Source: a virus (taxonomy: Duplodnaviria; Heunggongvirae; Uroviricota; Caudoviricetes). Taken from it: a stretch of 18,937 bases of DNA. The stretch's first letter is position 1. Every line of letters starts with the position of its first letter. Shown here one piece after another: positions 1 through 10,432 of the stretch. A program made the translations under genes and the position numbers. The DNA lies in IMG/VR virus record IMGVR_UViG_2547132278_000005, positions 1 to 18,937 of that record. The stretch is one strand, 5' to 3'. Under the pieces are notes generated by a model, which saw only the letters and a program-made list of their open reading frames with translations, had not been told where the DNA came from and ran no database searches.

Positions 1-293
1 TTGCGCACGTATTCGGTGAACGCACTATGGCGACGCTGGGGCGTCTTATGAGCCTGCTGTCACCCTTTGACGTGGTGATATGGATGACGGATGGCTGGCC
101 GCTGTATGAATCCCGCCTGAAGGGAAAGCTGCACGTAATCAGCAAGCGATATACGCAGCGAATTGAGCGGCATAACCTGAATCTGAGGCAGCACCTGGCA
201 CGGCTGGGACGGAAGTCGCTGTCGTTCTCAAAATCGGTGGAGCTGCATGACAAAGTCATCGGGCATTATCTGAACATAAAACACTATCAATAA
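1..293 (+). CDS. insB: IS1 transposase InsB, C-terminal part (5' end outside window)
   Basis: ORF 27-293 extended in frame to the window start; recognised IS1 InsB sequence; stop TAA at 291-293. Confidence 0.9.
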
Positions 294-308
294 GTTGGAG
301 TCATTACC
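286..308 (+). repeat. IS1 right terminal inverted repeat (23 bp)
   Basis: ATCAATAAGTTGGAGTCATTACC is the reverse complement of the IS1 terminal GGTAATGACTCCAACTTATTGAT. Confidence 0.85.
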
Positions 309-851
309 CGGGACACCGATCAGATTACCCACCAGTAAGGCCTGATAATTGATTAAAGTCCCGAGGTTAAAAGGCATGACACCGACCAGATTTTCTCTGC
401 TCGCCAGTAATCCTACAAATGCAGCAAACTGGAAAAGTATCAGAAACAGCGTTGCAGGAAACACAATCTGCCAGAATATACGCTGGGAAATTAAACGGGT
501 ATCACCATGTGAAACGTTGTTACGCCGGGGAGTAAAGACCCTGTAACCGCCCCAACAGAGAATGATAATGATAATAAAATTAGCCGTTAATGAGAGCGTT
601 TCGTAAAAACCCAGCTCTGCATATTTGCGGACAAAAATCCCTAAGGTGATCCCTGGCAATGCCGCCCAGCTGAAAAACATCATCATGCTGATCATCAGTG
701 CCAAAGGCAGATAAAAGAGAAAAACCTCACCGGAAGAAATATGCGCGAAAGTATTAATGTGGGCGAAAATGGGCAAGATTAAAGAAGGTAGGAACAGCGG
801 AAGCCCCCACCATTTATCACGTATTTTTATATAAGTTGCATTCAGTTTCAT
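309..851 (-). pseudogene. Polytopic inner-membrane protein gene truncated at its 3' end by the IS1 insertion (about 181 native codons remain)
   Basis: ORF 228-851 (minus) encodes about six hydrophobic helices; the reading frame runs into IS1 at 308/309 and the last ~26 residues are read from IS1 DNA. Identity of the protein not recognised. Confidence 0.6.
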
Positions 852-1202
852 AGATGCTCAGCAGAATCCCCCACATCCTGAAGGAGGTGTATTCAGACAG
901 GCATCCCACCTGACTTCGAATGATGATTATTCATCACTATAGAGAGCATTGATTCTAAGTGTCATATGAAAGTTCCAATTGATATATATCAAACAAAATA
1001 ACCCTGATTAATGAATTATTACGTTTATCATGTTAATTCATCATTATTACATCATCATTGTAAATAATTAAATTAACTTCCATAACATTAAAATATGTAT
1101 CCACTGACGCTTTTTTACATAACGAAGAATTGACCATTTTGTCCTGTTGTGCCTTAATGTAAGTACCGTCCACAGCGTGGGACATACTTCAAGGAACCTT
1201 TT

Positions 1203-1394
1203 GTGAGTCAGGCAACCAGTATGCGAAAACGACACCGATTTAACAGTCGCATGACCCGTATCGTACTGCTCATCAGCTTTATCTTCTTCTTTGGCCGTTT
1301 TATCTACTCGTCCGTCGGTGCCTGGCAGCACCATCAGAGCAAAAAAGAAGCTCAGCAATCCACACTCTCCGTCGAATCACCGGTACAACGTTAG
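1203..1394 (+). CDS. Hypothetical small single-TM protein (63 aa) in AT-rich spacer; speculative
   Basis: GTG start with AAGGA 7 nt upstream; basic N-terminus followed by one hydrophobic helix (IVLLISFIFFFGRFIY). No homology recognised; an antisense ORF overlaps it. Confidence 0.25.
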   Translation: MSQATSMRKRHRFNSRMTRIVLLISFIFFFGRFIYSSVGAWQHHQSKKEAQQSTLSVESPVQR

Positions 1395-1707
1395 CGGTTA
1401 CCTTCTCCACTTTCACAGAACATAACGGCACTTCGCTGTCGGATGCTTTTGCTGTTTGGGATTATCAAAGCGGCAGATATTCTTTCATCTTAAATTTTAC
1501 GTCTTTATCCTGACTGATGTTTATCCTGTTTGGCTGCGAAATAAATATAAAATTAATATATATGTTGTAATGATATATTTTTATAAATTATTCCCTGCGT
1601 GAATTTTAATAAATTTAATCTATCCCTTTATACGCAATACATTTACTTTCCTCTTTTGATGATCTTAAATGTCTTATTTTTCGTAATGTGTATAACAAGG
1701 AATAGTG

Positions 1708-2223
1708 ATGAAATTTAAAAAATGTCTTCTGCCTGTGGCAATGTTAGCGTCATTCACTCTGGCAGGATGCCAGTCAAATGCTGACGATCATGCTGCCGAT
1801 GTTTATCAAACCGATCAACTGAATACCAAACAAGAAACTAAAACCGTTAATATTATTTCCATTCTTCCCGCAAAAGTTGCCGTAGACAACTCCCAAAATA
1901 AACGGAACGCACAAGCCTTCGGCGCGCTTATTGGCGCAGTCGCTGGCGGTGTTATCGGCCACAACGTCGGGTCTGGCAGCAATTCCGGAACGACGGCAGG
2001 TGCAGTTGGCGGCGGAGCTGTAGGCGCGGCAGCGGGTTCTATGGTGAATGATAAAACCTTAGTGGAAGGTGTTTCTTTAACCTATAAGGAAGGCACCAAA
2101 GTGTATACCTCTACCCAGGTGGGTAAAGAGTGCCAGTTTACGACAGGTTTAGCCGTTGTTATTACCACGACGTATAACGAAACGCGTATTCAGCCAAATA
2201 CCAAATGTCCTGAAAAGAGCTAA
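1708..2223 (+). CDS. Outer-membrane lipoprotein with glycine-zipper region (YcfJ/SlyB/Pcp-like)
   Basis: Signal peptide with lipobox LAGC; Gly/Ala-rich stretch GALIGAVAGGVIGHNVGSGSNSGTTAGAVGGGAVGAAAG resembling YcfJ-type glycine zippers; ATG at 1708 with AAGGA SD (the ORF track starts at the GTG at 1705). Confidence 0.8.
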   Translation: MKFKKCLLPVAMLASFTLAGCQSNADDHAADVYQTDQLNTKQETKTVNIISILPAKVAVDNSQNKRNAQAFGALIGAVAGGVIGHNVGSGSNSGTTAGAVGGGAVGAAAGSMVNDKTLVEGVSLTYKEGTKVYTSTQVGKECQFTTGLAVVITTTYNETRIQPNTKCPEKS

Positions 2224-2238
2224 TAATCAGGAGGAGTC

Positions 2239-2778
2239 ATGAAGAAAGTTTTTCTTTGCGCCATCTTAGCCTCCTTAAGCTATCCGGCTATCGCCTCATC
2301 ATTGCAGGATCAACTCTCTGCTGTCGCAGAAGCGGAACAGCAAGGTAAAAATGAAGAGCAAAGGCAGCATGACGAATGGGTCGCGGAGCGCAACAGGGAA
2401 ATCCAGCAAGAGAAGCAACGTCGCGCAAATGCCCAGGCCGCCGCTAACAAAAGAGCGGCAACGGCAGCGGCAAATAAGAAAGCTCGTCAGGATAAACTGG
2501 ACGCCGAAGCCACTGCGGACAAAAAACGCGATCAAAGTTATGAAGATGAGCTACGCAGCTTAGAGATTCAGAAACAAAAACTGGCGCTGGCGAAAGAAGA
2601 AGCCCGCGTTAAGCGCGAAAACGAATTTATCGATCAGGAACTGAAGCACAAAGCTGCGCAAACCGATGTGGTGCAATCTGAAGCTGACGCCAACAGAAAT
2701 ATGACTGAAGGCGGTCGCGATCTGATGAAAAGCGTGGGCAAAGCAGAAGAGAACAAATCGGAAAGCTGGTTTAATTAA
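2239..2778 (+). CDS. Secreted/periplasmic charged coiled-coil protein
   Basis: Strong SD GGAGGAG; N-terminal signal peptide (MKKVFLCAILASLSYPAIA); remainder highly charged and Ala/Lys/Glu/Gln-rich, predicted helical. Confidence 0.75.
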   Translation: MKKVFLCAILASLSYPAIASSLQDQLSAVAEAEQQGKNEEQRQHDEWVAERNREIQQEKQRRANAQAAANKRAATAAANKKARQDKLDAEATADKKRDQSYEDELRSLEIQKQKLALAKEEARVKRENEFIDQELKHKAAQTDVVQSEADANRNMTEGGRDLMKSVGKAEENKSESWFN

Positions 2779-2816
2779 TCGATGTTAGTAACTTCAAGCC
2801 TATGATTCTTGAAGAT

Positions 2817-4901: not shown

Positions 4902-7400
4902 TTATATGGCTACCATGGCTGTAGAGCCAGAGCCATAGGCACTTGATTCTAACTCGAGAGTGTAATATCCATTCTTAGTACCACCATCAACTCCTGACCA
5001 ATCAAATGATAATGAAATCCAGTAACCACTTTCACTAGGATCTTGCACAAGATTGTCACCCATACCCCTTATACGCCTAATAGGTTGATTAGGGCCGACA
5101 GAATCAACTTCATATATATCTGTCATATTTCGTCCTATCTGTCTGGCTGTGATAACAGGCCAAGAGCCACTATAATTTAATATAGTAACAAGGAATTGAG
5201 TGTCATTGTTTATCTTGGAAAGTATAGCTTCAATATACCCATTACCATGCGTTCCTCCTTTTGAGTTTATGCGTAGCTTTGCTATCCCAGTGTCAAACAT
5301 ATTTAGTCTGTTATCAAACGTTCTTGGATGCAGATCAGCTGGAAGAGGCAATCGAATAGAAGATAAAGTATATGGGGATGGTGTATCTTCTGGATTACCT
5401 ATGATCATATTTGGTAATCTTACTACAATTGATTCTCTAACCCCTTTTTGAATACCAGTTACCGGTTGGGATAAATGAACATGGACTGGGCGTATAGTAA
5501 TCCCCTGAATACTTGCATATCCTGTTGTTGTACCATTAAGATTATTAAATATAGCTATAGTTTTCCACCCTCTCCCCACTAAATTAGCAGCTCGTTTGGG
5601 AATTGTATCAAGTTTATGATTATGTCTATTTCTTAAAAAACGACCTGTTGATTGCTGAGCATATAAATTATGCCATAAGCTAGAACGTTGTGTTGAATAT
5701 GGATATATATCAACTGCTCCGGCATACCATCCATCAGTGACAATTGATATCTGATTATCATCCCAATAACCAATTACATCTACCTCAGCAGCCTCAGCAT
5801 CAAGATAAAAACTAAATGTTGCCATTGCTGCTGTATTAATGGGAAAGCCACCAAGAATACCTTGTAAAGTTGAAGCTCTTTGATTATAAACATTCACTAA
5901 GTTTGAATATACATCATAAAATCCGACTTGATCAGATTGTTTTCCAGGCCATGTATGCACTTCAGATGATATTGGTCTGTTACCCTGAAGTAACCCTCCA
6001 CCCAAAAGCATGGATACCATTGCCTCTCCTAAAATAGCATATCCTTTACTATTAAAGTGAACAGGGTCGCTTTGAATAGAACCATACTGTCTATTATAAG
6101 CAATTTCATGGGCAGGAAAATAAGCACATCCATAAACTGATGCAAGATTTCTTATTGACTCTCCCCACATTTGCCAAAGAGGATCCCCTTCCCCATTACC
6201 ACCGCTGGCAGGACTACAAAGTACAACCCCCATCCCCCAGTCAATAAGCTTACGAATAAATAACTCCATATTTTTCATATATGTATCGTAAGTCTGGCTA
6301 TCAGTATTAGCGGAGTCGTTAATTGCATACATTAAAAATGCTATATCGCAATTTGGATTAGACTGCCAATCAGGTTCATTATAAGCACGGTACGCTGTAT
6401 AACCTGATTTTGCTCGAACAGTTATTGTTACCGGGCAGCCAGACAATATTGGAAGTGCGTTCTTTATAGCCTTTGGATATGTCATTGTTGCATGGCGATA
6501 ATTATCACCAACGCAAACATCATCATCTTCTGGAGCGATAGTATCGGATGTATTAACATCATATCCAGCCGTTATTGAGTCCCCCTGACACAATATTTTT
6601 ATCCCTATTTTTTTTCGTAACTTATAATGAGCTAACGTAAGGTTTCTGATATTTTTTGAACGGTATTCTGCACTATCAAGAGATATCAACCACTCTTGAA
6701 TATTACGATTATCCGATGTATTAATAATGCTGGCACCTGTTGGCTTTGCCAACTCAATAAGTACATCAGATGCTGAACCAGATTCAGGAAGGACCATTAT
6801 CGGATTTCCAGAGTCATCCATAGCAACAATCTTATTCTTACGCTGCTCAATTCCCGGCAAAGCTGGTATAGGTTCAGGGGTTCGTAGCGTTCTGATCTGG
6901 TTTGTTTCAGAAACTCCATCAACATAATTTTTAGTCGCCGCATCTTGAGCGCGTGACGGTTCACGAAGATTGCGAATGTAGTTTCCCTGTGCATCATAAT
7001 AGTTAGCCACAAACGACGGCTTGCGTAACGCCAGGCTAAACCAGCTACGAACCTGCTGAATCAACATCGTTATTTTATCAAAAGCATTCTCATGCACTTC
7101 TGCAAAAAACTTTCCCTGATTACGCAGATCCATTTCCTGAGTAACAGGAAGCTCACGAGCTATAGATATCTGATGACCTCTAGCCAACGCCTCCGACAGA
7201 ACAACACTGCCGCCGTTGTACCCTCCAGCCCCGGTAACTGTGTAATCAGTATCAAGGGTCAGCACACTGACATTCTCGTTCAGGTCAACAACCTGCACCA
7301 CCAGATCCGATTTATTGAAAATCCTAAAGGTGTAAGGAAATGATGTCGTAACGCCGTTACCTGTGTATTCGTTGTGGTCAACTTCGGTTGAGACCGTCAT
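4902..7400 (-). CDS. Tailspike / receptor-binding protein with T7 gp17-like N-terminal anchor and central SGNH (GDSL) esterase domain
   Basis: 832 aa; N-terminus (YTGNGVTTSFPYTF...LVVQVVD...VLTLDTDYTV) resembles the conserved podovirus tail-fibre anchor; SGNH blocks GDS at 6576-6584 (ILCQGDSITAGYD) and DPVH (catalytic Asp/His) in SDPVHFNSKGY; SD GGAGA. Confidence 0.85.
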   Translation of the reverse strand: MTVSTEVDHNEYTGNGVTTSFPYTFRIFNKSDLVVQVVDLNENVSVLTLDTDYTVTGAGGYNGGSVVLSEALARGHQISIARELPVTQEMDLRNQGKFFAEVHENAFDKITMLIQQVRSWFSLALRKPSFVANYYDAQGNYIRNLREPSRAQDAATKNYVDGVSETNQIRTLRTPEPIPALPGIEQRKNKIVAMDDSGNPIMVLPESGSASDVLIELAKPTGASIINTSDNRNIQEWLISLDSAEYRSKNIRNLTLAHYKLRKKIGIKILCQGDSITAGYDVNTSDTIAPEDDDVCVGDNYRHATMTYPKAIKNALPILSGCPVTITVRAKSGYTAYRAYNEPDWQSNPNCDIAFLMYAINDSANTDSQTYDTYMKNMELFIRKLIDWGMGVVLCSPASGGNGEGDPLWQMWGESIRNLASVYGCAYFPAHEIAYNRQYGSIQSDPVHFNSKGYAILGEAMVSMLLGGGLLQGNRPISSEVHTWPGKQSDQVGFYDVYSNLVNVYNQRASTLQGILGGFPINTAAMATFSFYLDAEAAEVDVIGYWDDNQISIVTDGWYAGAVDIYPYSTQRSSLWHNLYAQQSTGRFLRNRHNHKLDTIPKRAANLVGRGWKTIAIFNNLNGTTTGYASIQGITIRPVHVHLSQPVTGIQKGVRESIVVRLPNMIIGNPEDTPSPYTLSSIRLPLPADLHPRTFDNRLNMFDTGIAKLRINSKGGTHGNGYIEAILSKINNDTQFLVTILNYSGSWPVITARQIGRNMTDIYEVDSVGPNQPIRRIRGMGDNLVQDPSESGYWISLSFDWSGVDGGTKNGYYTLELESSAYGSGSTAMVAI

Positions 7401-7503: not shown

Positions 7504-7520
7504 ATTACCTTTCGGGTAAT
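7504..7520. promoter_or_regulatory. Operator-like palindrome ATTACC-tttcg-GGTAAT (copy 1 of 4)
   Basis: Perfect 6-bp inverted arms with 5-bp spacer in the divergent region between the tailspike and the LexA-box gene; the same arms recur at 8624, 8717 and 9725. Confidence 0.5.
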
Positions 7521-7556
7521 TTGCAAAACGTGCTGGATAGCAAACAAATTATTTGC

Positions 7557-7576
7557 TACTGTATAAATATACAGTT
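7557..7576 (+). promoter_or_regulatory. LexA (SOS) box
   Basis: TACTGTATAAATATACAGTT against consensus TACTGTATATATATACAGTA (CTGT-N8-ACAG, 18/20), ending 20 bp upstream of the ATG at 7596. Confidence 0.75.
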
Positions 7577-7595
7577 ATTGCATGGAGAAGATAAG

Positions 7596-7853
7596 ATGCA
7601 GCAGTATCACTATCCACTGGAAGACGGATTTACCGAAAGGATTCACACGCCGGGAGGCGTCAGATCACTAGTGGAGGGATCGCACTTGATGAAATTACTC
7701 CGGGATCTCGATAAGGATGGATTTAATGTCGATGGCCCACTTGCCGAACTGACTGCACTGATTAACTACGTCACCAGCTCACAGATGTCTATGCGGGATC
7801 TGCAAACACATCTCGACTATTGTGCCGAACAATTACGAAAACAAACCCGGTAA
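7596..7853 (+). CDS. Small SOS-regulated protein (85 aa), paralog of the C-terminal domain of the AntA-like antirepressor; putative antirepressor module
   Basis: ATG with SD GGAGAAG directly downstream of the LexA box; aligns with residues ~130-210 of the 9004-9660 protein (shared GxxSL.E.S.LM.LL..L..DG..V.G..AELT...Y......RD.QTH..Y). The ORF track starts upstream at 7521, but that extension overlaps the promoter/LexA box. Confidence 0.65.
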   Translation: MQQYHYPLEDGFTERIHTPGGVRSLVEGSHLMKLLRDLDKDGFNVDGPLAELTALINYVTSSQMSMRDLQTHLDYCAEQLRKQTR

Positions 7854-7860
7854 ATTTAAA

Positions 7861-7876
7861 GGCCGCAAGAGCGGCC
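7861..7876. terminator. GC hairpin (GGCCGC-aaga-GCGGCC) between convergent genes, putative bidirectional terminator
   Basis: Perfect 6-bp GC stem flanked by AT-rich sequence on both sides; overlaps the stop of the minus-strand 7876-8604 gene. Confidence 0.5.
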
Positions 7877-8604
7877 TATCGTTTCGCTTTGTGCTCGTCC
7901 CAGCACGTTTTGCACCATGCCATTAAGCCATCCGCATTTTGATTATTAGGGTAAAAGCTTGTTCGTTTTCTGCGGACATTACAAATTGGGCACCACTTCA
8001 TATGGCGTGTATTCTTTGGGCCATCGAGACACCTTGCACACCACTTAGTCAATCCATCTGGATTTTTTGACGATTTCCTGAATTTTTCATATGGTAGGTT
8101 TATTCTGCATCGCAAGCACTGCTTGCTACCACTTGAAACTCTGTTAGCTGATTCTTCTTTTGGCGGCGATACAGAAGGTATTCTTGCTGGCTCTGATACT
8201 GCCTGAGGTGCTTTTTTAGATGACTGAGACGATATGTCATCACCAGGGAATCTTCCATGATATGCCGGACGCGTTGACACTCCAGGTGGAAGCTCAGCTG
8301 TAAACGGCTTTGGCTGAATCAGTTGCCTCTCTTTTGCTAACTCCTGCTGTTTATAATATGTCTGGATTACCGCACTATCATAAGCAGGAGGTGCGGAAAT
8401 ATTAGGCGCATTACCTCCAGTTTTTTGAAACTGAGTAGAGGTGTGTTCTATCACCTGTGTACGATTAATCGTTATCTCCCCATCTTCGGTCTTTATCGTT
8501 TTGTTATGATTAACGACCGTACGATCAGAGATCTTAGTCTTGTTCTGGTTGATAACGTAAATAATCACCGCAACCACACCAACAACTATCCAGAAAACTT
8601 CCAT
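7876..8604 (-). CDS. Membrane-anchored protein with two tandem C-x2-C-x20-C-x2-C zinc-ribbon repeats
   Basis: N-terminal TM helix (FWIVVGVVAVIIYVI), Pro/Ser-rich linker, then CLRCRINLPYEKFRKSSKNPDGLTKWCARC and CPICNVRRKRTSFYPNNQNADGLMAWCKTC (shared N.DGL..WC..C); SD GAGGA. Confidence 0.75.
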   Translation of the reverse strand: MEVFWIVVGVVAVIIYVINQNKTKISDRTVVNHNKTIKTEDGEITINRTQVIEHTSTQFQKTGGNAPNISAPPAYDSAVIQTYYKQQELAKERQLIQPKPFTAELPPGVSTRPAYHGRFPGDDISSQSSKKAPQAVSEPARIPSVSPPKEESANRVSSGSKQCLRCRINLPYEKFRKSSKNPDGLTKWCARCLDGPKNTRHMKWCPICNVRRKRTSFYPNNQNADGLMAWCKTCWDEHKAKR

Positions 8605-8623
8605 TGCTTTTCCTCACAATAAC

Positions 8624-8640
8624 ATTACCTTAAAGGTAAT
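8624..8640. promoter_or_regulatory. Operator-like palindrome ATTACC-ttaaa-GGTAAT (copy 2 of 4)
   Basis: Perfect palindrome about 20 bp upstream of the start codon of the 7876-8604 gene, abutting its SD. Confidence 0.5.
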
Positions 8641-8716
8641 ATCTTGCTTTCAGGTGATCAAGCGTTAAACGCAATCAACCAAATACGGTTGATTTTAATA
8701 TTTCTTCGCGTTTATC

Positions 8717-8733
8717 ATTACCTTTGCGGTAAA
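8717..8733. promoter_or_regulatory. Operator-like palindrome ATTACC-tttgc-GGTAAa (copy 3 of 4)
   Basis: Same arms and spacing as the other copies; lies at the head of the structured leader upstream of the AntA-like gene. Confidence 0.5.
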
Positions 8734-8767
8734 TTTACATTGCACTCCTCTTGTGCCATAGTAATCG

Positions 8768-8845
8768 GGCACTGGCAAAATCCAGTGCCGGGATTGGTCT
8801 CCCGGATTACTAAGTGGCGCATACCACGCCAGACGTGGTTTTTTT
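8768..8845 (+). other. Structured non-coding leader: two GC hairpins followed by a terminator-like hairpin with T-run (possible attenuator or small RNA)
   Basis: GGCACTGG-caaaat-CCAGTGCC (8768-8789); CCGGGA-ttggtc-TCCCGG (8788-8805); CCACG-ccaga-CGTGG-TTTTTTT (8824-8845). No credible ORF or RBS in this stretch. Confidence 0.3.
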
Positions 8846-9003
8846 ATGCGTATAGCACAGTCATGCCAGAATTATGGTGGGCTGAATGGGGGTCCGAAAG
8901 GACGCCGGTACCACTTAGGCCGGTAAGACCAACTCCGTTCAGTTCACCACCATCTGATTGGTCTCAGCGGTGGTGATGTAATTCGCTAAGTGGAGACGCC
9001 ATC

Positions 9004-9660
9004 ATGAACGCTCAACTCATCCCCGTATTCAACGGCACTATATCTAACGAAACAGCCCTACTTTGTAATGCCCGCGATCTGCACGCTTTTTTAGGTGTTA
9101 AAAAGGTGTTTGCAGCATGGATTACAAATCGCATATCAGAATACGAATTCATTGAAAATCAAGACTATATTTTGCTTTCCAATTTGGGAAAGCAAACATC
9201 TGGTAGAGGCGGCCACAACCGCAAAGAGTACCACCTCACCCTTGATACAGCCAAAGAGCTGGCGATGGTCGAGCGTAACGAAAAAGGTCGCCAGGTGCGA
9301 CGCTACTTCATTGAATGCGAGAAACGTTTAAGACAACAAGAAACAAAAGTGGAGAAGGTCTTGTCAGGCTTCATGCCCGCCATTATGGAGGCGATCAAGC
9401 TGGAAGACAAAAAAGAATACAGCGCCCCACTGAAGCCCGGCTACCGTAGCCTGATTCATTCGCCGTCTGGTGTTCTCGGCCTGACGGAGAACTCACTGCT
9501 GATGAATTTGCTGAACCAGTTACAGGAAGACGGGCACGACGTATCGGGCGCGGCGGCGGAACTGACCACCATGTTCTGCTACATCGTCGGTGTGAGCAAA
9601 TGCCTGCGTGATATCCAGACCCACGCGGAGTACATCAACGACAAGGCAGGGTTCTTCTGA
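9004..9660 (+). CDS. AntA-family phage antirepressor-like protein (N-terminal AntA domain plus C-terminal domain shared with the 7596-7853 protein)
   Basis: N-terminus LIPVFNG...[33 protein letters not shown]...[14 protein letters not shown]...[11 protein letters not shown] matches the AntA/AntB antirepressor family pattern; SD GGAG. Confidence 0.8.
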
Positions 9661-9724: not shown

Positions 9725-9741
9725 ATTACCTCAAGGGTAAG
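9725..9741. promoter_or_regulatory. Operator-like palindrome ATTACC-tcaag-GGTAAg (copy 4 of 4)
   Basis: Same arms and spacing; about 60 bp upstream of the 9800 start codon and downstream of a weak hairpin terminator (9670-9696). Confidence 0.5.
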
Positions 9742-9799: not shown

Positions 9800-10432
9800 A
9801 TGAGAACAAATACAACAAGAAAAGCGATGCCATACATTATCCCAGAAGCAGATTTCGATAGAAAACTGAACATGTCTGAGAAGAACACTAGTCACACCGA
9901 AAGCTACTTAGCGAAAGGTGTGGTTGATTTCGTTCTTCCGGGATTCACAACACCTTATGGTTATCGCCTTGTAAAATCTTGTAATGGCGATCATTACAGA
10001 ATGATTACTACCAGCGATACTCCAGAAACGGTGTATGCGGTTAAGTTAATCTTTCGGGAAGATATCGTCGAAGCCAAAAGAACATGTACGCAGATCATGG
10101 TATGGCGTACGCCTAATGTTATTCATGACCGTGCTGTTCATGGTTTGCCTCAGATTTTTTTTCAGTTCTTCCTAGAGCAATATGCGATCGTTGTATCTGA
10201 TGAGCAACAAACAATCGATGGGAGAAGATTCTGGGAAAGAATGATTTCTTGGGCTATAAACACCCCGGGATATAATGTATACGTTTCAGATGGCTCTGAA
10301 GAAGATAGACCTCTTAGCTTCATGACATCATGGGATGATTTCTATAGCCAGTGGGCTGATTTCTGTTGGGGCAGTGATAAAGATGTGCATACCCACAGAC
10401 TACTGGTTATAAGCAAAGATAAACTGCATTAA
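9800..10432 (+). CDS. Hypothetical protein (210 aa), unassigned accessory-island gene
   Basis: Strong SD GGGAGGA; soluble, Trp/Asp-rich, no recognised motif; followed immediately by a strong terminator. Confidence 0.75.
   Translation: MRTNTTRKAMPYIIPEADFDRKLNMSEKNTSHTESYLAKGVVDFVLPGFTTPYGYRLVKSCNGDHYRMITTSDTPETVYAVKLIFREDIVEAKRTCTQIMVWRTPNVIHDRAVHGLPQIFFQFFLEQYAIVVSDEQQTIDGRRFWERMISWAINTPGYNVYVSDGSEEDRPLSFMTSWDDFYSQWADFCWGSDKDVHTHRLLVISKDKLH

Follow-up and report, generated by a model that had tools for sequence, protein, structure and literature searches.

A probable P1 immI-type antisense RNA module upstream of the antirepressor gene ant in a Uetakevirus-like prophage

Results

A structured and unannotated interval precedes ant

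The window (the whole stretch of DNA analysed here, 18,937 nucleotides in length) is a Uetakevirus-like (epsilon15/phiV10) prophage adjoining yfgI. The module described below lies between its tail-fibre gene and its virion genes, in a slot that in phiV10 is annotated as 'putative anti-immunity protein', and it ends at the ATG of ant at position 9004 (Table 1). The initial annotation had placed this region upstream of an antirepressor gene, and the gene directly downstream is indeed a Pfam AntA match (E = 4e-26). The same product matches phrog_377, anti-repressor Ant (E = 2.7e-66), and has the RefSeq product name 'phage antirepressor Ant'; by annotation, therefore, Ant would act as an antirepressor. 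In the RefSeq copy, which is 100% identical, the interval upstream carries no annotation. A 399-bp query matched 479 of 5,426 complete E. coli genomes, with most of its length covered in 125, and among the 12 matched records listed, 11 had no feature annotated under the match.

An ORF of 110 amino acids is present at 8644-8976, in a region initially described as having no credible ORF. We also reject a coding function, given that neither Pfam nor PHROGs returned a match, that the ORF overlaps the promoter, the terminator and two structured RNAs, and that the indels among homologues are not multiples of three. A search for tRNA and tmRNA genes found none.

Folding against shuffled controls, a check that the initial annotation had itself proposed, gave -104.8 kcal/mol for positions 8760-9010 as RNA (z = -5.43), an energy that 0 of 200 shuffles equalled. 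The structural elements listed at the outset were all recovered: the two adjacent hairpins, and the terminator-like hairpin with its run of seven T residues, are the IsrK hairpins and terminator of Table 1, and the large stem-loop at 8944-8976 has arms at 8944-8951 and 8969-8976. Likewise, the 10-mer GATTGGTCTC occurs exactly at 8792-8801 and 8956-8965, both times in a predicted loop. Taken alone, this repeat is modestly unusual (3 matches with at most one mismatch against 0.96 expected, a number reached by 15 of 200 shuffles). A second exact repeat, CTAAGTGG, absent from the initial annotation, lies at 8810-8817 and 8986-8993; the two strands of the window hold 4 copies against 0.40 expected, which 0 of 200 shuffles matched. 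The reverse complements of both repeats, AGACCAA (8926-8932) and CCACTTAG (8911-8918), sit between the repeat copies. They fall within the largest structure of the interval, an 85-nt C4 RNA that had been overlooked.

Table 1. Features of the ant leader region, in order of position in the window
Feature	Position	Strand	Description
Candidate operator palindrome (putative)	8718-8732	.	TTACC-N5-GGTAA, beside the -35 of the IsrK promoter
Sigma-70-type promoter (predicted)	8734-8762	+	-35 TTTACA (8734-8739), 17-nt spacer, extended -10 TGcCATAGT (8754-8762)
IsrK small RNA (equivalent of the c4-a1b1 leader)	8769-8845	+	Rfam RF01394, full-length
IsrK hairpin 1	8769-8788	+	100% paired, 4/7 pairs compensatory (35-locus alignment)
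IsrK hairpin 2	8789-8804	+	92.6% paired (35-locus alignment)
a1 site UUGGUCU	8794-8800	+	Loop of IsrK hairpin 2; exact complement of 8926-8932
b1 site CUAAGUGG	8810-8817	+	IsrK linker 5' of the terminator; exact complement of 8911-8918
IsrK Rho-independent terminator	stem-loop 8823-8839, U-run 8840-8846	+
C4 antisense RNA	8870-8954	+	Rfam RF01695, full-length
b' segment CCACUUAG	8911-8918	+	Loop of C4 hairpin 2; mean P(unpaired) 0.85
a' segment AGACCAA	8926-8932	+	C4 internal loop; mean P(unpaired) 1.0
Hairpin presenting a2	8944-8976	+	a2 UUGGUCU (8958-8964) in the loop
b2 site CUAAGUGG	8986-8993	+	Overlaps the ant Shine-Dalgarno GGAG (8992-8995)
Antirepressor gene ant (218 aa)	9004-9660	+	Pfam AntA, 91.8 bits, E = 4e-26

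The interval encodes IsrK and C4 on the same strand

A covariance-model search, also proposed initially, was made by scanning the whole window against Rfam. Only two matches in the window exceeded their gathering scores, isrK and C4, both full-length and on the + strand. For isrK, whose gathering score is 50, the match reaches 67.7 bits over model positions 1-77 of 77; for C4, whose gathering score is 45, it reaches 61.2 bits over model positions 1-87 of 87. Together they account for the region, which supports its initial description as non-coding and RNA-based. At a relaxed threshold, the c4-a1b1 model (RF03163) also matches positions 8756-8808 (E = 1e-8), although its 39.9 bits fall short of the gathering score of 46.7.

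Upstream of isrK, the sequence predicts a sigma-70-type promoter with 9 of 12 consensus matches and with the TG present, and nearly all homologous loci have -35/-10-like hexamers equally far from IsrK position 1. This promoter and position 1 of the Rfam isrK model together imply a transcription start at about G8769. The palindromic pattern beside the -35, TTACC-N(4-7)-GGTAA, is present in 4 copies in the window (at 7505, 8625, 8718, and 9726) against 0.04 expected, and ~16 of 35 homologous loci retain its half-sites at the corresponding position. A transcript of ~80 nt running to the T-run at ~8845 had been predicted in the initial annotation, and this agrees, so far as can be judged from sequence, with the ~77-nt Rfam isrK match at 8769-8845. 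The promoter-like site lies at the right distance, and IsrK, which Rfam names an Hfq-binding RNA, would by analogy be made as a discrete Hfq-associated RNA of ~77 nt, with read-through into ant.

The strand on which these RNAs lie bears on another suggestion made at the outset, namely that the region is the counterpart of that encoding sar in P22. The sar RNA of P22 is a cis-antisense RNA, made from the strand opposite to its target, with which it overlaps. A sar-like RNA transcribed from the minus strand across the start of ant would fit the position of the locus, which resembles P22 immI in having an antirepressor gene amid late/structural genes (here with the tail-fibre gene on one side and virion structural genes on the other) and in post-transcriptional control by a small RNA. 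However, there was no minus-strand promoter-like site in 8500-9100 and no match to Rfam sar at E ≤ 1 in 8600-9100, the arc and mnt genes are absent, and the same-strand isrK and C4 account for the entire region. We therefore give almost no credence to an opposite-strand RNA of the sar type; the right analogue is the same-strand, trans-acting c4 of P1/P7.

C4 carries antisense copies of both repeats

In the C4 RNA of the window, a basal stem of 17 bp (8875-8891 with 8933-8949) closes off two hairpins (8892-8903 and 8904-8924), and C4 folded alone adopts this structure, at -41.2 kcal/mol. The conserved CACCACC is present at the 3' end of the basal stem, in invariant alignment columns. The a' and b' segments, which are unpaired in the C4 family model, exactly complement both copies of both repeats, over 7 nt and 8 nt, respectively. 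Energies calculated with RNAduplex for whole molecules do not discriminate, as those of C4 with IsrK and of C4 with the ant leader were matched by 77 and 20 of 300 shuffles, respectively. For that reason, the argument for pairing rests on the short, specific complementarities and on their co-variation.

The hairpin that presents a2 overlaps C4: the CACCACC strand closing the C4 basal stem on its 3' side also serves as the 5' arm (8944-8951) of the hairpin, and alignment columns 211-217 belong to both helices. As a consequence, the C4 stem and the a2 hairpin are mutually exclusive.

Target sites, antisense segments and stems co-vary across related loci

To collect related loci, we used a pattern made from the parts of IsrK outside the target sites, which yielded 120 viral contigs; after removal of chance matches, 75 distinct IsrK-bearing loci remained, the window included. 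A structural alignment was made of 35 loci. The covariation across homologues that the initial annotation had suggested examining was seen both in the pairing of the sites (75 loci) and in the stems (35-locus alignment). For the stems, 98.3% of the C4 basal stem is paired and 11 of its 17 pairs are compensatory, a degree of covariation matched by 0 of 500 shuffles, while controls in which the stem was slid gave 32-46% pairing. C4 hairpin 2 is 100% paired in the same alignment, and for the a2 hairpin pairing stands at 90.3%, 6 of its 9 pairs being compensatory. The columns of the IsrK terminator are misaligned, and pair counts there are uninformative.

The sites themselves follow the same three-way relation. 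Downstream of the 7-mer in the loop of hairpin 2, 71 of the 75 loci carry its exact reverse complement and then a second direct copy, which in 70 of these 71 lies 29-35 nt further downstream. Fifteen different 7-mers are used in this way, and when the motifs of other loci were substituted as a control, the relation was found in 13 of 4752 cases. For the b site, where at least 6 nt had to match exactly, 52 of 71 loci show the relation, using 35 motifs (control, 88 of 4902), and 44 a/b combinations occur among these 52 loci. One heterologous module, for example, has the a/b specificity UUGGCGU/CUAGUAGG. There is also a second class of loci, in which the spacer from IsrK to the antisense RNA is longer; these, too, consist of isrK and C4.

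These data speak to the idea, raised in the initial annotation, that the 10-mer repeated in two loops is the binding site of a regulatory protein. Both copies are displayed in hairpin loops, as such a site might be, and the Hfq-binding label that Rfam attaches to IsrK could be read in the same sense. However, the motif exists in 15 versions, and for every one of them the neighbouring C4 holds an exact antisense counterpart. A protein would have to co-vary with the motif, and the module is accompanied by no gene of that kind. In addition, pairing of a1 with a' is supported by mutants of Gifsy-1 (PMC4825925). A protein site is thus extremely unlikely, and the loop motif is instead the target of an antisense RNA encoded on the same strand 60-130 nt away, with which it co-varies.

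The position of b2 relative to the downstream gene is similarly constrained. An ATG follows b2 within 30 nt in 50 of 52 loci, and in all but one of these 50 the distance is 8-13 nt, the exception being 16 nt. Of these 50 loci, 49 have a b2 that continues into a Shine-Dalgarno-like motif, as it does in the window. The genes that follow are mosaic among the homologues and all of antirepressor type (AntA, Bro-N, Rha, ORF6N, and P22_AR_C).

The module has the layout of P1 immI

P1 and Gifsy-1 are the CHARACTERISED systems used for comparison. The immI region of P1/P7 reportedly encodes a c4 antisense RNA that has a1/b1 and a2/b2 as its targets and that controls icd-ant. In the GenBank record of P1, the promoters, a1, b1, c4, a2, b2, icd, and ant are annotated in the order of the window. 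Both loci have, on one strand, a promoter, a1, b1, a C4 RNA in which b' precedes a', a2, b2, and a start codon, with a sites of 7 nt, b sites of 8 nt, and an antirepressor as the regulated function. The spacing is also close, with 29 nt (P1) and 28 nt (here) from a2 to b2, and in each locus the start codon is 10 nt away from b2. Full-length Rfam C4 matches are found in both (61.2 bits here and 68.8 bits in P1), and the isrK model matches the a1/b1 leader of P1 as well (35 bits, E = 1e-5). The P1 leader likewise ends in a hairpin and a U-run, yet it scores those 35 bits as isrK, compared with 67.7 bits for the leader of the window.

There are, nevertheless, several differences. The phage studied here is a Uetakevirus-like podovirus prophage, whereas P1 is a plasmid prophage; Ant is of the AntA type and not P1 Ant1/2; and in place of a C1 operator, the promoter is accompanied by a different palindrome. 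P1 also has the icd ORF between the targets and ant, and translation of icd is needed for transcription of ant, by way of Rho-dependent polarity. No icd-like ORF was found here: only 10 nt separate b2 from the ATG, b2 lies directly on the Shine-Dalgarno of ant, and the ORF that starts at the C4 AUG has 3 codons. The icd gene is specific to P1/P7 and lies outside the Rfam definition of the family. Nonetheless, in a locus without such an ORF the route from pairing to silencing may differ from that in P1. Processing of C4, by RNase P, is said to be known for P1/P7 only.

Based on these likenesses and on the co-variation described above, we conclude that positions 8734-9003 very probably constitute an antisense immunity module of the P1 immI type, which controls ant in a Uetakevirus-like prophage.

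Gifsy-1 supports pairing of a1 with a'

In the Salmonella prophage Gifsy-1, the locus upstream of anrP contains, in tandem, matches to isrK (79.3 bits), c4-a1b1 (48.1 bits), and C4 (69.0 bits). It resembles the window in having isrK, C4, an a2 hairpin, and b2 on the Shine-Dalgarno of an antirepressor-like gene, in equal order and with equal spacing, and its IsrK is also 77 nt long with the same three hairpins. It differs in that Gifsy-1 is lambdoid and encodes another downstream protein family, that the adjacent antQ is missing here, and that its a site reads UUGGCGU rather than UUGGUCU.

Experiments on this close homologue have been reported by Hershko-Shalev et al. (2016; PMC4825925). IsrK supplied in trans raised translation of anrP 139-fold, and a stable downstream RNA, STnc1160, was found to be complementary to IsrK (PMC4825925). 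The compensatory pairs G28A/C162U and G31A/C159U (PMC4825925), counted from the 5' end of IsrK, map to a1 (UUGGCGU, positions 26-32) and to a' (ACGCCAA) of C4. Since the mutant pairs lie in these two segments, pairing of a1 with a' is directly supported in Gifsy-1.

The published model for Gifsy-1 is a different one, in which the short RNA activates an upstream 'orf45' that overlaps C4, and the antirepressor gene is then translated by coupling. Mutations in the start and stop codons of orf45 do lower the IsrK-dependent activation of anrP (PMC4825925). However, the start-codon mutations fall in the 5' strand of C4, such that the orf45 and C4 models are confounded, and the orf45 stretch of Gifsy-1 is itself a full-length Rfam C4 match. 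Its nucleotides are conserved and its amino acids are not (quoted in PMC12197685), as would be expected of an RNA gene. Moreover, whereas Gifsy-1 has a 45-codon ORF that runs through C4 to the anrP start, the ORF beginning at the conserved AUGGUGG of C4 has 3 codons in the window (stop at 8883-8885), and 16 of 35 homologues have its end >70 nt upstream of the ATG of the gene. We therefore rejected an orf45-like upstream ORF at this locus. Given that the frame stops after 3 codons here and early in those homologues, the orf45 step cannot apply to the window, and we judge it very unlikely that the published model describes how ant is controlled.

Attenuation as a possible supplement

A further comparison is with P4, in which, as here, a processed same-strand antisense RNA (CI RNA) lies between upstream and downstream copies of its target (seqA and seqC). 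The CI RNA of P4 works by premature termination of transcription. Here, in contrast, the downstream target covers the ribosome-binding site, and an effect on termination is predicted in a minority of homologues. The initial annotation had nonetheless offered an attenuator as one reading. In such a scheme C4 would pair with nascent b1 (and a1) and favour the IsrK terminator, thereby exerting negative feedback on read-through into c4 and ant.

In the window, the terminator helix has a predicted probability of 0.02 in the free RNA, since the 3' end of b1 is then taken up by an alternative hairpin, and of 0.97 once b1 is blocked. A mechanism of this kind was suggested by Hershko-Shalev et al. by analogy with CI/seqA of P4, IsrK being considered to resemble seqA as a structural homologue (PMC4825925), and C4 and c4-a1b1 share an Rfam clan. 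However, the energy gap in the window is only 2.9 kcal/mol and derives from equilibrium rather than co-transcriptional folding. When a1/b1 was blocked in 48 homologous loci, the probability of the terminator increased by >0.2 in only 6, and in most of the loci the terminator forms regardless. Constitutive STnc1160 also left the effect of IsrK undiminished in Gifsy-1 (PMC4825925). The attenuator thus has some support for the sequence of the window, but not for most homologues. We consider added attenuation of the P4 kind to be unlikely, and it would be a minor supplement to antisense control of the P1 immI type rather than a replacement for it.

Discussion

A model for the control of ant

The transcripts, the processing of C4, the repression of translation and the role of IsrK as a decoy are extrapolated here from experiments on P1 and Gifsy-1. 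In the model that we favour, control of the P1 immI type, transcription from the sigma-70 promoter at 8734-8762 would start near 8769. The majority of transcripts would end at the terminator (8823-8846), giving the ~77-nt IsrK with a1 and b1, and those that read through would contain C4 (8870-8954) followed by the ant leader with a2 and b2. C4 would be cut out of the longer transcript (by RNase P in P1), and its a' and b' segments would pair with a2 and b2 and block ribosome binding, such that Ant would not be made and lysogeny and immunity would be kept. In this manner, ant would be silent both in the lysogen and when it enters on a superinfecting phage of equal specificity. The a and b sequences would thus serve as a specificity code that differs between phages and underlies heteroimmunity, as between P1 and P7.

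IsrK, by way of a1 and b1, would compete for C4 both in cis, where it forms part of the read-through transcript, and in trans, in the form of the short RNA. At high levels of IsrK, repression of ant would be relieved, as it is for AnrP in Gifsy-1. It counts against the decoy step that the published Gifsy-1 model credits translational coupling of orf45 and anrP, and not titration of C4.

A broader reading can be put forward, tentatively and with somewhat more doubt than conviction. It holds that IsrK is an anti-antisense decoy, that the modules are three-RNA switches, that 'orf45'/STnc1160 of Gifsy-1 is C4, that the modules form a large orthogonal set of specificities (52 loci yield at least 44 a/b combinations), and that the competition between helices could couple maturation of C4 to accessibility of the target. 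If it is true, the literatures on IsrK and on C4, which have been kept apart even in a 2025 review, would merge.

Implications

The element is a typical, albeit unannotated, member of described families, and in that respect it is already known. APSE phage genomes already bear both annotations, with a' and b' marked (PMC7313666), and a description of the c4 and c4-a1b1 motifs dates from 2010 (PMC2864571). What is mildly new is that IsrK is explicitly equated with the a1/b1 leader, and C4 with 'orf45'/STnc1160, as well as the breadth of the specificity repertoire and the competing helices of the C4 stem and the a2 hairpin. The initial annotation, taken as a whole, had correctly anticipated a small RNA running to the T-run and control at the post-transcriptional level, but not the nature of the loop motif, nor the analogue to which the region is best compared.

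With these assignments, a stretch of ~400 bp that appears 'empty' can be labelled with isrK, C4, and the a2/b2 targets, which offers an explanation for the silencing of the neighbouring antirepressor gene. The Gifsy-1 mutants in a1 and a' suggest that the mechanism of IsrK be re-read as C4 control of the P1 type, which is a modest clarification and not a new kind of system. Finally, the specificity sequences would predict the cross-immunity of co-resident and incoming phages at a second layer of immunity.

Overlap of the C4 stem and the a2 hairpin

The 3′ strand of the basal stem of the C4 antisense RNA (8875-8891/8933-8949) overlaps the 5′ arm of the hairpin that carries a2, the second copy of the a target site, located before ant (8944-8951/8969-8976). 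The shared nucleotides, 8944-8949, fall within TCACCACC. Because the strands overlap here, the two helices are mutually exclusive, and compensatory changes were found in the C4 basal stem and in the a2 hairpin alike among the 35 aligned homologues. The overlap might couple display of a2 to the folding or processing of C4.

The Gifsy-1 locus

In the Gifsy-1 sequence (L122), the 'orf45'/STnc1160 region (34131-34316, minus strand) is a full-length match to the Rfam C4 family, at 69 bits. The compensatory mutants G28/C162 and G31/C159 described for Gifsy-1 (PMC4825925) map to a1, the target site in IsrK, and to a′, the complementary segment of C4. A 2025 review still gives IsrK and c4 as unrelated sRNAs.

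Palindromes and genes flanking the module

The palindrome TTACC-N5-GGTAA occurs four times in the window, compared with 0.04 copies expected by chance, and its half-sites at the IsrK promoter are kept in ~16 of the 35 homologues. The four copies look like an operator set for some repressor.

Positions of the palindromes, flanking genes and paired IsrK units
Feature	Position	Strand	Context or match
TTACC-N5-GGTAA copy 1	7505-7519		just upstream of ORF 7521-7853
TTACC-N5-GGTAA copy 2	8625-8639		just upstream of divergent gene 7876-8604
TTACC-N5-GGTAA copy 3	8718-8732		just upstream of the -35 of the IsrK promoter
TTACC-N5-GGTAA copy 4	9726-9740		just upstream of gene 9800-10432
110-aa ORF, TTG start	7521-7853	+	phrog_450 and phrog_15539
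Divergent 242-aa gene	7876-8604	-	phrog_6762 (family without functional label)
Two IsrK units, contig L076	2420-3830
Two IsrK units, contig L052	7099-9760

The phrog_450/phrog_15539 module of the 110-aa ORF, where RefSeq annotates a shorter hypothetical protein, is also present in the C-terminal part of Ant (residues 135-216); the ORF is possibly a remnant or second copy of an antirepressor C-terminal domain. C-terminal segments of the divergent gene product are similar to zinc-binding parts of the endonuclease VII, Lar, and HNH families. One copy of the b-site motif, CUAAGUGG, lies in the mRNA strand of this gene (8041-8048) and may well be due to chance.

Further to the left, the 832-aa tail-fibre protein (4902-7400) has a GDSL lipase/acylhydrolase domain, which suggests a polysaccharide-deacetylating tailspike. 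The host genes yfgG, yfgH, and yfgI occupy the left end of the window (1-2800), and the prophage boundary is therefore near 2.8-3.0 kb.

Distribution of the module

Of 5,426 complete E. coli genomes, 479 contain a match to the 399-bp module region, in up to three places per genome; in 125 genomes the match covers most of the region. Among the matches listed, 11 of 12 E. coli records carry no annotated feature there. In phage records the module is also mostly unannotated, or else it lies under a gene call that is spurious ('hypothetical protein' or 'Ash family protein').

In some viral contigs there are two IsrK units, ~1-2.6 kb apart; in one such contig, L076, the a-site sequences differ between the units (UUAGCCU vs UUGGAAC). 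Such an arrangement is consistent with double units that would act as stacked, orthogonal immunity modules.
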